Part shown: piece by piece, positions 32,026 to 34,986 of the stretch
How positions within the stretch are numbered: position 1 is the first letter of the stretch
Layout: the number at the start of each line of letters is the position of its first letter
From: a phage
Sequence record: NC_105433.1
Length of the DNA: 51,374 bases
Reading direction: 5' to 3' (one strand)
Notes under the pieces: generated by a model
What the model saw: only the letters and a program-made list of their open reading frames with translations
Databases searched by the model: none
What the model was told of the DNA's origin: nothing
Program-made: the position numbers and the translations under genes

Positions 32026-32257
32026 GCAAGGTAGAGATGCGGTATGGAATCACGCTAAAGAATGCGGAATAGCCGACGATATAAAGAAGATCGCGCAATA
32101 CTTTGATATTGCAGATGTGAGCATAATTAGCGGCGACAAGATGACTTTCCTCAAGGAAAGGCCGCGAAAAATGGTAAGAGTTCCAGCAGTTCCAACAAAA
32201 ATTGATTTCAAAGAGGCAATGGCTAAAATCCGAGAGCCTCGCAAATATTATAAATGA
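32015..32257 (+). CDS. Hypothetical protein
   Basis: Frame of ORF 31967..32257; internal ATG at 32015 preceded by ggagg, overlapping the end of the small ORF. Confidence 0.4.
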   Translation: MKVEQGRDAVWNHAKECGIADDIKKIAQYFDIADVSIISGDKMTFLKERPRKMVRVPAVPTKIDFKEAMAKIREPRKYYK

Positions 32258-32351
32258 GGATAGTTATCATGTGGCGCTTGTTTGTTCTACCGTTACCCGT
32301 TATCATCGCTGTTACAGTTATGTACCATATAGTGATGAGATAGGTAGCAGA

Positions 32352-33467
32352 ATGAAAAATGTAAAAATTACAGATGAGCAATTCAAGATCGAACGGGCGG
32401 CAGGTAAGACATATAAACAGATCGCTCAAGAGTACGGAATGAATGTGAGAAGCGTTGAGCGTCGCGCGGCGCGTCTTGCAAAGCAAGGACAGTTATCGAC
32501 CATCGGAGCGCCTGGTTTTGGTGTTCATGGTGAGTCAGTAATGACTGACAAAGAAGGAAATATAATCCTCAAGTGGACCAAAACCAGCAAGGATAAAGAG
32601 CAATTAGAGGCACTGATGCGCGCAGCTATGGAGGCGTTTAGCGAGGAAGTGCCGCGATTAGATCCAGTTCCATTGCAGGAGCGTAACTATAATGAAACGC
32701 TTTCATTGTATCCGATCTTTGACATGCACTTAGGAGCTATGGCCCATAAGCACGAATGCGGCGAAAATTGGGATACTGCGACGGCAGAGCGCGTTATGAA
32801 TAACTTTATCGACTATGCTTTGATGTGCGCACCGGACAGCGAAAAGGCTGTTATCCTGATTGGTGGCGATATGCTGCATAGCGACGGACTGGAGGCGGTG
32901 ACACCTGCAAGCGGTCACGTACTTGATCAAGATAGCCGATATGCAAAATTGGTTTACGTTGCAATACGTGCAATTCGCCGCGCAATTAATAAAATGCTGT
33001 TAAAGCATAAACATGTTGAGGTCCAGATCGTAGAGGGCAATCACGACCAATCAGGAATGATTTGGCTACGCGCAGCAATGGCGGCAGCATATGAGAACGA
33101 GCCGCGCGTTTACGTTGATGTTTCTCCTCGCGTTGTTCACCACACGCAATACGGAAAAACTTTCCTTGCGTACCATCACGGGCACACAGTGCGTAAACCG
33201 GAGACTTTGCTAATGATGTGCGCGTCAGATTGGCGGGAGGACTTCGGAAACTCAAAAACGATGTATGCGCACGTAGGGCACTGGCATCACCAGACCGTAA
33301 CAGAAACGTCGCTTGGCATCGTGGAGGTGCATAGCACCCTGGCGGCAAAAGACGCATACGCCGCGCGAGGTGGCTGGAGATCTCGACGCCGTGCAGCGGT
33401 TATCATTTACGACAAAGAGCATGGAGAAGTGGGGCGATTTGTTCACTATCCAGAAATGATGAGTTGA
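32352..33467 (+). CDS. Metallophosphoesterase (calcineurin-like) with N-terminal HTH domain
   Basis: Frame of ORF 32202..33467; ATG at 32352; HTH-like TYKQIAQEYGMNVRSVERR; phosphoesterase motifs GDMLHSDG, GNHD, GHWHH. Confidence 0.55.
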   Translation: MKNVKITDEQFKIERAAGKTYKQIAQEYGMNVRSVERRAARLAKQGQLSTIGAPGFGVHGESVMTDKEGNIILKWTKTSKDKEQLEALMRAAMEAFSEEVPRLDPVPLQERNYNETLSLYPIFDMHLGAMAHKHECGENWDTATAERVMNNFIDYALMCAPDSEKAVILIGGDMLHSDGLEAVTPASGHVLDQDSRYAKLVYVAIRAIRRAINKMLLKHKHVEVQIVEGNHDQSGMIWLRAAMAAAYENEPRVYVDVSPRVVHHTQYGKTFLAYHHGHTVRKPETLLMMCASDWREDFGNSKTMYAHVGHWHHQTVTETSLGIVEVHSTLAAKDAYAARGGWRSRRRAAVIIYDKEHGEVGRFVHYPEMMS

Positions 33468-33513
33468 TGAATTTTTATTTAAATCAATGACAAATTAAAT
33501 CAAAAACTTGCAA

Positions 33514-33543
33514 AGGGGCGGCGTTTGTCGCCTCTTTTTTTTG
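33514..33543 (+). terminator. Intrinsic terminator
   Basis: aggggcg-gcgtttgt-cgcctct followed by tttttttt. Confidence 0.55.
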
Positions 33544-33612
33544 TTTAATTTTTTACCATGTGCGTTTATCATGCGGTCAATATATTGACTTTAATTAATA
33601 TGGAGAATAAAA

Positions 33613-33828
33613 ATGAAAGATTTTATTAACGCAGCTACCGCCGGATCTGGCGGTTCATCTATCGCAAGCGCCGCTACAGGGCAGTTAACCATTGCTATTG
33701 CCAGTTTTATTTTAATGGCTGCATTCGGTGCGTGGGGCGCTTACCTTCGCTGGCGTGATAGTAAAAAATTCCACGAGGCGATCGAAAAAGGTGATATTCA
33801 AAAAGCTATTGAGATCAGGGGCAAGTAA
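33613..33828 (+). CDS. Holin (pinholin-like, putative)
   Basis: 71 aa; weakly hydrophobic Gly/Ala/Ser-rich first segment and strong second transmembrane segment; charged C-terminus; directly upstream of the endolysin. Confidence 0.6.
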
Positions 33829-34319
33829 TGAGCATAAAGAACAGGGTAGCGGCTGCGGCCTTTGGCGTTGCGGTTGCCTTGACTTCTCCACTTCTTGAAG
33901 AGATCGAAGGGGTAAGATACAAGCCATACAAAGATATTGCGGGGGTATGGACGGTTTGCGCAGGAATCACCGGACCAGATGTTATCCTGGGGAAAACGTA
34001 CACTAAAAAAGAGTGTGATGCTTTGTTGGCTAAACATATCCAGGTTGCTAAAAAAGAAGTTGACAAGCAGGTTAAGGTTGACATTCCTGATAGTATGCGT
34101 GCAGCAATGTACTCATTCACTTATAATGCAGGCGTGGGAGCTTTCAGAAATTCAACAATGCTGAAACTCATCAACCAGGGGAAATTAAAAGATGCTTGCG
34201 ATCAGCTTTATCGTTGGACGTATTACCATAACCCCAAAACAGGAAGGCGCGAGAAGTCTAAAGGCTTACTTAACAGGCGCAAGGTCGAATACAAATATTG
34301 CACAATGGATCTGAAATGA
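33828..34319 (+). CDS. SAR endolysin (lysozyme, glycoside hydrolase 24-like)
   Basis: 163 aa; N-terminal Ala/Gly-rich signal-anchor-release-like segment; catalytic-triad-like spacing E(GVRY)...D(IAG)...T(VCAG). Confidence 0.75.
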
Positions 34320-34711
34320 TGAAGAAATTTTTACTTACACCAATCGCAATGGCGGTGATCTTGTCTGGATGTTCAAGCGTTACGCCACTGACCGGATTAA
34401 TCGGCAGTAAGCCGGAAATCACAGCACAGGCTGGCGCGAAGAACGTAAAGCAGACAGTTGGCATTACAGCAAAGCAGGACGCCAGCACAAAACAGAAAAC
34501 CACAATAAAGGAATCTGCGGTTGACAAGGTGGACACGTCCAGCAAGAAGGATTTCACAACATCAACCATTCAGGCCAATACCATCAAGGCAGACAAAATT
34601 CAGGTCGTGCAGGGTAATAACGGCAGATGGTACGATCCAATAATCATATGCGTGGTTGTGTTAATTGTGCTGATTTGTCTTTACTGGAGAGAAAAGAAAA
34701 AGGAGGCTTAA
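34316..34711 (+). CDS. Unimolecular spanin (T1 gp11-like)
   Basis: Frame of ORF 34298..34711; ATG at 34316 overlaps the endolysin stop; lipobox LSGC plus C-terminal transmembrane segment [16 protein letters not shown] in one polypeptide. Confidence 0.75.
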
Positions 34712-34727
34712 TGCCTCCTTTATTTTT
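34701..34727. terminator. Bidirectional terminator between the spanin (+) and minus-strand genes
   Basis: aggaggc-ttaat-gcctcct hairpin containing the spanin stop codon, followed by ttatttttat. Confidence 0.55.
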
Positions 34728-34950
34728 ATGCGTCGGGCCACATATGAGTTTCGTTTGTTGGCTTGTTCGATTCGTCGTACTGCCTTACTTCAATGCTGCA
34801 AGTGTCGCCATACATTTCTGCAATCTTGCGCTCATTTTCAACAGCCGATTGCTCACTCCATCCAAAATCCCTGTCATAAATTGTCGGGATTTCAGCAGAA
34901 GATCCGTTGTCATGATTATATACGCGAACTACTAAAAACTTGCTGGACAT
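34726..34950 (-). CDS. Hypothetical protein
   Basis: 74 aa; preceded on the minus strand by a box cassette and an RBS. Confidence 0.5.
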   Translation of the reverse strand: MSSKFLVVRVYNHDNGSSAEIPTIYDRDFGWSEQSAVENERKIAEMYGDTCSIEVRQYDESNKPTNETHMWPDA

Positions 34951-34986
34951 AATTTTACCTTTTGGTTGTTTCGTTTCGATGAAACA

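Follow-up and report, generated by a model that had tools for sequence, protein, structure and literature searches.

Three short genes lie in tandem at positions 33613 to 34711 of NC_105433.1, and the question raised by this locus is whether they constitute a phage lysis cassette and, if so, of which type. An ORF check of the window (the whole phage DNA stretch of 51,374 nucleotides) placed three plus-strand genes, whose stop and start codons overlap, exactly where the first-pass annotation had them, as genes for a holin, an endolysin of the SAR type, and a unimolecular spanin (u-spanin). The holin gene (33613-33828, plus strand) encodes 71 amino acids (aa), the endolysin gene (33828-34319, plus strand) encodes 163 aa, and the spanin gene (34316-34711, plus strand) encodes 131 aa. 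The endolysin ATG overlaps the holin TAA (TAATG), and the spanin ATG overlaps the endolysin TGA (ATGATG). All three products were strong matches to PHROG lysis families and were homologous to T1 gp13, gp12, and gp11, respectively, and the three gene assignments were upheld. This is an ordinary, previously described T1-type lysis set composed of a small holin, a membrane-tethered lysozyme, and a single-chain spanin. Cassettes with a pinholin, a SAR endolysin, and a u-spanin have been described for T1-like phages (PMC6139136, PMC4559738, PMC11447400, PMC13164509).

Identity to T1 was 56% for the holin (gp13, gap-free), 65% for the endolysin (gp12), and 44% for the spanin (gp11, over 126 of 131 residues, E 1e-35), and the cassette DNA was 97 to 99% identical to that of approximately 60 Warwickvirus (Drexlerviridae) phages, several of which are annotated with a holin, an endolysin, and a u-spanin. 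These matches agreed with the earlier description of the phage as T1-like and place it by sequence among the T1-like siphophages (Drexlerviridae, Tempevirinae, Warwickvirus), whereas T1 itself belongs to Tunavirinae and Tunavirus. In T1, the holin, endolysin, and u-spanin are encoded by genes 13, 12, and 11, respectively, which are arranged in the same order and whose stop and start codons overlap or abut; the products are 71, 162, and 133 aa long, compared with 71, 163, and 131 aa here. The two phages differ upstream of the holin gene. Between this gene and the exonuclease gene, T1 carries gene 14 (small SH3/DUF7244 protein) and HNH gene 15, which are absent from NC_105433.1, and a search of the whole window for a homologue of the SH3/DUF7244 protein found none.

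Within Warwickvirus, the cassette and its flanks were 97.5 to 99.0% identical at the DNA level in vB_Eco_Sip, NorthRox, tiwna, tonijn, vB_EcoS-95, and FritzSarasin (Bas04), where the genes are annotated as holin, endolysin, and either u-spanin or Rz-like spanin. These six phages differ from NC_105433.1 at 15 to 18 positions each, mostly synonymously; relative to the closest relative, 9 of 12 substitutions across the lysis genes were synonymous. The gene order holin/endolysin/spanin was kept in all related loci examined (25/25). Because of the PHROG and Pfam E values, the synteny in 25 loci, and the mostly synonymous substitutions, we do not consider the cassette match to be a product of chance.

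The holin gene has a GGAG ribosome-binding site 8 nt upstream of its ATG, and its product matched phrog_2877 ("holin") over its full length (residues 1 to 71 of 71, E 2.9e-32). Among curated families, Pfam gave only a subthreshold match to DUF3262 (18.5 bits, with a cutoff of 27) and NCBIfam gave none. By these sequence comparisons, the protein is a member of the T1 gp13 holin family (phrog_2877). All 24 relatives in which the copy was complete had the same length of 71 aa, and the holin gene was directly upstream of the endolysin gene in all related loci. The claim that a weakly hydrophobic, Gly/Ala/Ser-rich first segment precedes a strong second one was correct: residues 4 to 23 are 80% Gly/Ala/Ser/Thr with a mean Kyte-Doolittle hydropathy of 0.65, and residues 25 to 45 form a clear hydrophobic segment (transmembrane domain [TMD]) with a hydropathy of 1.84. 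The C-terminal tail (residues 46 to 71) is basic and charged (8 K/R versus 5 D/E). Residues G13, G14, T22, and Q24, as well as the motif F38-G39-x-W41-G42-A43-Y44, were invariant among the relatives.

The protein had also been called pinholin-like, a description that held only in part. Pinholins of the S21 68 type (class II holins) have two TMDs in an N-in, C-in topology, the first being a releasable SAR segment, and form heptameric holes of roughly 2 nm that depolarize the membrane and are too small for a folded endolysin. What stood was the likeness of the protein to the phage 21 pinholin-antiholin S21 68/71. Both have a length of 71 aa, a G/A/S/T-rich first segment of similar mean hydropathy followed by one of greater hydrophobicity, and a C-terminal tail with charged residues, and the gene immediately downstream of each encodes an R21-type SAR endolysin. 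What did not stand was any kinship in sequence or any dual start. The hhalign comparison of a 10-sequence T1-type holin alignment with S21, whose sequence was confirmed to be 100% identical to that in phage 21 record OL657228, gave a probability of 0.3% and an E value of 0.23, so that homology to the S21 pinholin was rejected, and sequence or profile similarity was not detectable. No dual-start motif was present in the holin gene, which has a single 5' ATG with the next Met at residue 35; relatives likewise show no second start, their holins beginning with MK(D/E)F or MREF. The connectors differ as well, with three uncharged residues (T22-G23-Q24) between segments 4-23 and 25-45 of the holin described here and a DQVSPSQ loop in S21. 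These comparisons are a reminder that the term "pinholin" as used for T1-type holins is an analogy.

A different kind of holin must be weighed at this point. The protein could be a single-TMD (N-out, C-in) or large-hole holin that merely adjoins a SAR endolysin, with residues 1 to 24 forming a periplasmic tail that does not insert, and we regard this as a possible, if somewhat doubtful, account. SAR endolysins are also paired with ordinary holins, as P1 Lyz is with LydA, and the lack of S21 homology and of a dual-start motif would be in keeping with such an arrangement, as would a connector without charge. The summed insertion energy on the Hessa scale was strongly unfavorable (+7.8 to +13.4 kcal/mol) for any 19-residue window within residues 1 to 24, and single-sequence AF2 gave one continuous helix (residues 15 to 58) rather than a hairpin, with residues 1 to 20 at low confidence. 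However, the mean hydropathy of the first segment (0.54 to 0.65) is close to that of the experimentally proven SAR TMD1 of S21 (0.52), and the segment is even richer in G/A/S/T than S21 TMD1 (80% versus 55%). The invariance of A7, G13, G14, A20, and T22 in the alignment also speaks for a structured role and against a loose tail. Published annotations of T1-type holins disagree: the T1 reference record labels gp13 as "contains single transmembrane domain," and others give two TMDs (PMC11447400, PMC4559738), with T1-like holins annotated as class II pinholins by the Young laboratory (PMC4559738, PMC6139136). No experiments on T1 gp13 or its relatives were found in the literature searched. For S21 68, the active form is itself N-out with a single TMD, and the two readings hence converge in functional terms.

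The second gene product matched Pfam PF00959 (Phage_lysozyme, E 7.3e-39) and phrog_7 (E 5.4e-55) and is a GH24/T4-lysozyme-type muramidase. It also matched PDB 3HDE (phage 21 R, E 8.7e-48, residues 2 to 159, with the SAR region included) and PDB 4ZPU (RrrD, E 7.6e-47). Phage 21 R (3HDE, 3HDF) and E. coli DLP12 RrrD (4ZPU) are full-length homologues, approximately 55% identical (for phage 21 R, over 152 aligned columns), with the same E-x8-D-x5-T arrangement. Alignment of the catalytic triad had been named beforehand as a check on which the endolysin assignment could fail; the triad was present, and in the alignment with phage 21 R each residue of E27-x8-D36-x5-T42 fell in the same column as its counterpart in E35/D44/T50. 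The motif E-I/V-E-G...D...T was kept in 25/25 relatives. The E...D...T spacing had been likened to both P1 Lyz and phage 21 R; the endolysin is specifically of the latter type, and P1 Lyz (1XJT, 1XJU) gave a remote and partial match (E 1.5e-4 to 1.9e-4).

The N terminus of the endolysin begins with MSIKNR (K4 and R6 are basic), followed by a SAR-like segment at residues 7 to 23, as had been proposed. This segment aligns with the SAR segment of R21 and has a similar hydropathy (2.01 versus 2.11 in R21) and a related composition (53% versus 63% G/A/S/T). Like R21 and RrrD, the endolysin described here has a Cys-free, Ala/Gly-rich SAR segment after basic residues; its only Cys residues are at positions 44, 63, 124, and 158. 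Regulation of P1 Lyz requires a Cys in the SAR segment (disulfide isomerization), and the R21 type refolds without that Cys. Because its SAR segment has no Cys, the protein is classed by sequence as a phage 21 R-type SAR endolysin and not as a P1 Lyz-type enzyme. Relative to R21, it lacks six residues in the stretch from the SAR segment to the catalytic Glu, carries a single Gly in the SAR segment where R21 has a GGG run, and has six inserted residues close to position 135 (HNPKTGRRE).

An A-V-A motif at residues 15 to 17, within the SAR segment, could in principle serve as a signal peptidase site. If so, the N terminus would be a cleavable Sec signal peptide and the endolysin a soluble secreted enzyme under some other control. 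The n-h-c layout (MSIKNR, VAAAAFGV, and A15-V16-A17, with AxA before L18) is of this form, but the entire N terminus aligns with that of phage 21 R, and R21 has a comparable A-I-A motif and yet is the structurally and genetically characterized SAR prototype. In addition, the catalytic Glu27 lies just four residues past the segment, the composition of the segment is kept across all relatives, and a free, active muramidase in the periplasm would lyse the cell before assembly is complete. We consider cleavage very unlikely and the SAR assignment to be the probable one.

The third gene was claimed to encode a single polypeptide with a lipobox (LSGC) and a C-terminal transmembrane segment, and both features were found. 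The N terminus has K3 and K4, a hydrophobic stretch at residues 5 to 16, and the lipobox L16-S17-G18-C19, which was judged by a PROSITE-style rule applied by hand; residues 1 to 18 form the predicted lipoprotein signal. Cys19 is followed by Ser20 (+2) and Ser21. Under the Lol-avoidance rule, sorting to the outer membrane is expected of a lipoprotein whose lipidated Cys is followed at +2 by any residue but Asp, and with Ser at this position the spanin is predicted to be sorted there. The LSGC lipobox and Ser +2 were present in 25/25 relatives and invariant in a nine-sequence alignment, and LSGC is also found in T1. The mature protein would be identical if translation began at a second in-frame ATG, at 34319. 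Residues 108 to 124 have a hydropathy of 3.05 (C-terminal TMD) and are followed by the basic tail REKKKEA. The sequence of the TMD has diverged freely between T1 and NC_105433.1, although its hydrophobicity is kept in all relatives. Single-sequence AF2 gave helices only at residues 8 to 18 and 108 to 130, with a pLDDT of 81 to 88 for the latter; for residues 27 to 89, in a periplasmic domain predicted for this type of spanin to consist mainly of beta strands, most pLDDT values were below 50 and no secondary structure was assigned.

The spanin matched phrog_1804 ("Rz-like spanin") over its full length (E 9.6e-46). The threshold for a u-spanin family (PMC6139136) is an identity of 40% or more across 40% or more of the length, and by this measure the protein falls within the family of T1 gp11. 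The homologous gene in FritzSarasin is annotated as "u-spanin." The u-spanin prototype is T1 gp11, which complements lambda RzRz1 and whose LSGC lipobox has been tested by mutation (PMC6139136). An embedded Rz1-like gene was considered and rejected: the sole alternative-frame ORF in the spanin gene (34521-34643, 40 aa from a TTG start) lacks a lipobox. A u-spanin in place of an Rz/Rz1 pair, as had been suggested, was consistent with both results, and on sequence grounds the third gene product is a T1 gp11-type u-spanin.

Lambda Rz/Rz1 do the job predicted for this protein with the same overall topology (outer membrane lipid anchor, inner membrane TMD, and a spanned periplasm), and T1 gp11 can functionally replace them (PMC6139136). 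Unlike the lambda pair, the spanin described here is one polypeptide rather than two, has no embedded gene, and has neither a coiled-coil prediction nor sequence similarity to Rz/Rz1. Its Cys residues are confined to position 19 (the lipidation site) and positions 112 and 121 (within the TMD), with none in the periplasmic domain (residue 20 to approximately residue 107), and it would therefore lack intermolecular disulfides, unlike lambda Rz/Rz1. No u-spanin has a periplasmic Cys (PMC6139136). That the protein is instead a plain outer membrane lipoprotein with another role, such as Cor-like superinfection exclusion, in a phage with no spanin is extremely improbable, since the weak PHROG match to Cor (1.3e-5) covers only residues 2 to 60 and the label "lipoprotein" in some database records is outweighed by the full-length match to the spanin family (9.6e-46), the 44% identity to T1 gp11, which complements lambda RzRz1 (PMC6139136), a conserved C-terminal TMD and basic tail not expected of such a protein, and a last position in the cassette that is fixed in 25/25 loci. 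In many database records, u-spanins still go under a wrong label ("lipoprotein," "Rz-like spanin," "Rz1A," or "hypothetical protein").

Taken as a unit, the locus is very probably the late lysis cassette of a T1-like phage, with three proteins, each assigned to a different layer of the E. coli envelope, acting in three steps. The holin would accumulate in the inner membrane, anchored by residues 25 to 45 with its charged tail in the cytoplasm, and at a set time would trigger, presumably collapsing the proton motive force. The endolysin would be exported by Sec and held inactive, tethered to the inner membrane by its weakly hydrophobic SAR segment. By analogy with phage 21 R, its close homologue, depolarization would free this segment and the enzyme would refold and cut the glycan strands. 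The spanin would be processed at LSGC, lipidated on Cys19, and sent to the outer membrane (Ser +2), with its C-terminal helix remaining in the inner membrane; because of these two anchors, a single chain would reach across the periplasm, passing through the meshwork of the murein. After loss of the murein, the spanin would be free to move and collapse, disrupting the outer membrane, most likely by fusion with the inner membrane. The topology signals for this last step are present in the sequence, and the function would be that of T1 gp11, by analogy with its complementation of lambda Rz/Rz1 mutants. Nothing in the evidence contradicted the three-step scheme.

The value of these results is limited to correct annotation: a standard cassette in a T1-like Warwickvirus phage was confirmed, and its gene boundaries were fixed. 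The locus offers nothing new apart from one odd amino acid change in the spanin. Residue 42 is Lys in NC_105433.1 and Glu in every relative, within the otherwise invariant motif AQAGAENVKQ, and this Lys is unique to NC_105433.1 compared with its Warwickvirus relatives. Normal function of the Lys42 allele was assumed here. We think it rather unlikely that either the T1-type 71-aa holin represents a class of its own with no sequence kinship to S21 or the Glu42-to-Lys change alters disruption of the outer membrane. A holin of its own class might be single-pass and N-out, with a conserved Gly/Ser/Thr-rich N-terminal tail acting in the periplasm, instead of a pinholin with two TMDs.

An Rfam scan of the whole 51,374-nt window gave no matches. 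Between the upstream terminator and the holin gene, no promoter was identified, and promoter-like sites were no more common than in shuffled sequence. The best promoter-like site overlaps the holin start codon and is not claimed as a promoter. The cassette is bracketed by terminators on both sides. The upstream intrinsic terminator (33512..33547, plus strand) closes an exonuclease-like gene (32202-33467) and has a GC-rich stem of 11 bp with a T run after it; its fold was −16.6 kcal/mol (z −4.1), with 0/200 shuffles as stable, and the vB_Eco_Sip record has a terminator annotated at the equivalent position. The downstream terminator (34699..34730, both strands) is bidirectional and common to the spanin gene and a convergent minus-strand gene (34950..34726). 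Its stem is 9 bp long, T runs are present on each of the two strands, and the folds were −17.1 kcal/mol (z −4.7) on the plus strand and −14.2 kcal/mol (z −4.0) on the minus strand. The 5' arm of this terminator overlaps the final spanin codons (KKEA and stop). Terminators are annotated at the equivalent position in the T1 and vB_Eco_Sip records, and a terminator over the 3' end of the spanin gene is, like the LSGC lipobox, common to T1 and NC_105433.1.

The lysis cassette of this T1-like Warwickvirus comprises exactly three open reading frames (ORFs), all on the plus strand within 33613-34711, where the first-pass annotation had placed them: a holin gene (33613-33828, 71 aa), an endolysin gene (33828-34319, 163 aa), and a spanin gene (34316-34711, 131 aa). 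The holin ATG is preceded by a GGAG at a distance of 8 nt, the holin TAA overlaps the endolysin ATG (TAATG), and the endolysin TGA overlaps the spanin ATG (ATGATG); an alternative in-frame spanin ATG at 34319 would yield an identical mature product. T1 has the same gene order, and its holin (gp13), endolysin (gp12), and u-spanin (gp11) are 56%, 65%, and 44% identical to the respective products. A 1.5-kb cassette region was 97.5 to 99.0% identical in DNA sequence to about 60 Escherichia phages, of which the inspected records were classed as Drexlerviridae; Tempevirinae; Warwickvirus, and the 25-kb half of the window carrying the cassette was 97 to 98% identical over 90 to 95% of its length to vB_EcoS-95, tonijn, FritzSarasin, NorthRox, and vB_Eco_Sip (Sip), bearing out the proposed T1-like assignment. 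Nearly identical cassettes are annotated in GenBank, with close records labeling the first two genes holin and endolysin and the third u-spanin, Rz-like spanin, lipoprotein, or hypothetical protein; the cassette agrees point for point with published descriptions of T1-like phages and is already known. The order holin, endolysin, spanin was kept in all 23 further loci (viral metagenome contigs) gathered using the spanin as the query, and substitutions relative to the two closest relatives were mostly synonymous (7/8 in the endolysin compared with Sip). This constancy of order and preponderance of synonymous changes indicate that the genes are real and under purifying selection. Twenty records labeled as Campylobacter jejuni phages partially matched 33400-34900, a host label unexpected for a Drexlerviridae-like sequence.

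The holin matched phrog_2877 ("holin") over its full length (2.9e-32) and its length of 71 aa was constant among relatives carrying an intact gene; the invariant residues were G13, G14, T22, Q24, and F38-G39-x-W41-G42-A43-Y44. Its earlier description as a two-segment protein was accurate: residues 4 to 23 are 80% Gly/Ala/Ser/Thr, with a mean hydropathy of 0.65, practically equal to that (0.52) of transmembrane domain 1 (TMD1) of the phage 21 pinholin S21, a proven signal-anchor-release (SAR) segment, and residues 25 to 45 form a clear TMD (hydropathy, 1.84) followed by a basic tail. S21, its query sequence verified against the phage 21 genome, showed no similarity to the holin family profile (probability, 0.3%), and no dual start was present in the holin. 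The two segments are separated by T-G-Q alone, and single-sequence AlphaFold2 gave a continuous helix from 15 to 58, with a break at GSGG and a low-confidence N terminus. Annotations also conflict, as T1-like holins have been named class II pinholins (PMC4559738, PMC11447400, PMC6139136), whereas the T1 reference record describes gp13 as "single transmembrane domain." On these grounds, the label "pinholin" is best regarded as an analogy. A literature search found no experimental study of the T1 gp13-type holin family. Either a one- or a two-TMD topology would end in the same active form, a single TMD with a periplasmic N terminus.

The endolysin matched Pfam Phage_lysozyme (7.3e-39) and phrog_7 (5.4e-55). 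Its closest solved structures were 3HDE (the phage 21 endolysin R21; E, 8.7e-48), 3HDF, and 4ZPU (E. coli RrrD), and the R21 and RrrD alignments span residues 2 to 159, including the N-terminal hydrophobic segment. Identity to R21 was about 55%, and Glu27, Asp36, and Thr42 (E-x8-D-x5-T) share columns with the R21 triad Glu35, Asp44, and Thr50. The N terminus reads MSIKNR followed by a 17-residue segment, which is 53% Gly/Ala/Ser/Thr with a hydropathy of 2.01, compared with 63% and 2.11 for the R21 SAR segment. Cleavage of this N terminus by signal peptidase, as an A-V-A motif at residues 15 to 17 might suggest, is formally conceivable; R21, which has a comparable motif, escapes cleavage. The SAR-like segment and triad spacing had been likened to those of both R21 and P1 Lyz; the first likeness held, but P1 Lyz gave only a remote partial match (E, about 1.5e-4). 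Together with a SAR segment devoid of Cys, this match places the endolysin with R21 and not with P1 Lyz. R21 is reportedly activated by refolding of its released SAR segment, and P1 Lyz is said to be activated by disulfide isomerization. Compared with R21, the stretch that links the SAR segment to the catalytic Glu is six residues shorter, a deletion common to all T1-type relatives.

The third gene product, matching phrog_1804 ("Rz-like spanin") over its full length (9.6e-46), conforms to the proposed T1 gp11-type u-spanin, and its identity to gp11 surpasses the family threshold of PMC6139136. Both the lipobox and the C-terminal TMD noted at first pass are present: K3 and K4 precede a hydrophobic core and L16-S17-G18-C19, with the outer membrane sorting signal Ser at +2; the 87-residue periplasmic part is Thr/Lys/Ser rich and lacks Cys; and a very hydrophobic stretch (108 to 124; hydropathy, 3.05) is followed by REKKKEA. 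These features match those defining the gp11 family, in which gp11 complements lambda RzRz1 and altered LSGC affects function (PMC6139136). Among the relatives and T1, LSGC-S was invariant and a periplasmic motif of 20 residues followed by (V/I)TAK was almost so; of the TMD, the relatives kept hydrophobicity alone. Single-sequence AlphaFold2 confirmed the terminal helices (8 to 18 and 108 to 130) and no others, with a periplasmic pLDDT below 50, too low to check the beta-rich prediction. Codon 42 (34439-34441) is AAG, encoding Lys within the periplasmic motif AQAGAENVKQ. This motif is otherwise invariant, with Glu at position 42 in 24/24 related loci and in T1 gp11, and base-by-base comparison gave GAG in the two closest relatives; 17 phage records had matches to this stretch, none of them identical to it. 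Lys42 may reflect natural variation, an error in sequencing, or a mutation with an effect on spanin function, and it is the sole window-specific oddity of the cassette.

The cassette most likely follows the scheme of three steps already worked out in phages 21 and T1. By that analogy, holin triggering would depolarize the inner membrane; the tethered SAR endolysin would then be released, refold, and degrade murein; and the u-spanin, free of the murein mesh, would disrupt the outer membrane, probably via fusion with the inner membrane. The sequence analysis itself shows the gene structure, homologies, catalytic residues, and topology signals; timing, endolysin release, the size of the holes, and membrane fusion are projected from relatives. 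The first-pass observation was confirmed and its interpretation supported, refined by the R21-type rather than P1-type endolysin and the analogical use of "pinholin."

Stable hairpins with T runs lie on both sides of the cassette, at 33512-33537 (−16.6 kcal/mol; z, −4.1) and at 34699-34721 (−17.1 and −14.2 kcal/mol on the plus and minus strands, respectively). A promoter search of the interval from the upstream terminator to the holin gave no convincing candidate. The downstream hairpin is bidirectional, common to the cassette and a convergent minus-strand gene; the spanin C terminus, KKEA-stop, is encoded by its 5' arm, so that selection on the RNA may account for part of the conservation of the u-spanin KKEA/KKGA terminus. 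In T1 (Tunavirus), the exonuclease gene is separated from the holin by a small SH3/DUF7244 gene (gene 14) and an HNH gene, both missing from that interval here (PMC13164509). In this phage the terminator and then the holin come immediately after the exonuclease-like gene; the SH3/DUF7244 gene, which a recent proposal counts as an accessory to the lysis module of Drexlerviridae, was absent from 33468-33612, and a search across the whole window found no homologue. Mechanical ORF calling gave the exonuclease-like gene (32202-33467) a TTG start and 421 aa; since relatives annotate this "DNA repair exonuclease/phosphoesterase" gene as 1116 bp (about 371 aa), translation probably begins at an internal ATG close to 32352. 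Against Pfam, it gave only a subthreshold match, to Sigma70_r4_2.

Just 3' of the spanin, 34726-34952 holds two mutually antisense 74-aa ORFs, and GenBank records conflict, with the plus-strand ORF annotated in NorthRox and the minus-strand ORF in Sip and FritzSarasin. The minus-strand ORF (34950..34726) had no Pfam match. Of the two, it alone could be recognized at distant loci (44% and 38% identity), and close loci conserve it better than the plus-strand ORF, which marks it as the real gene, converging on the bidirectional terminator.
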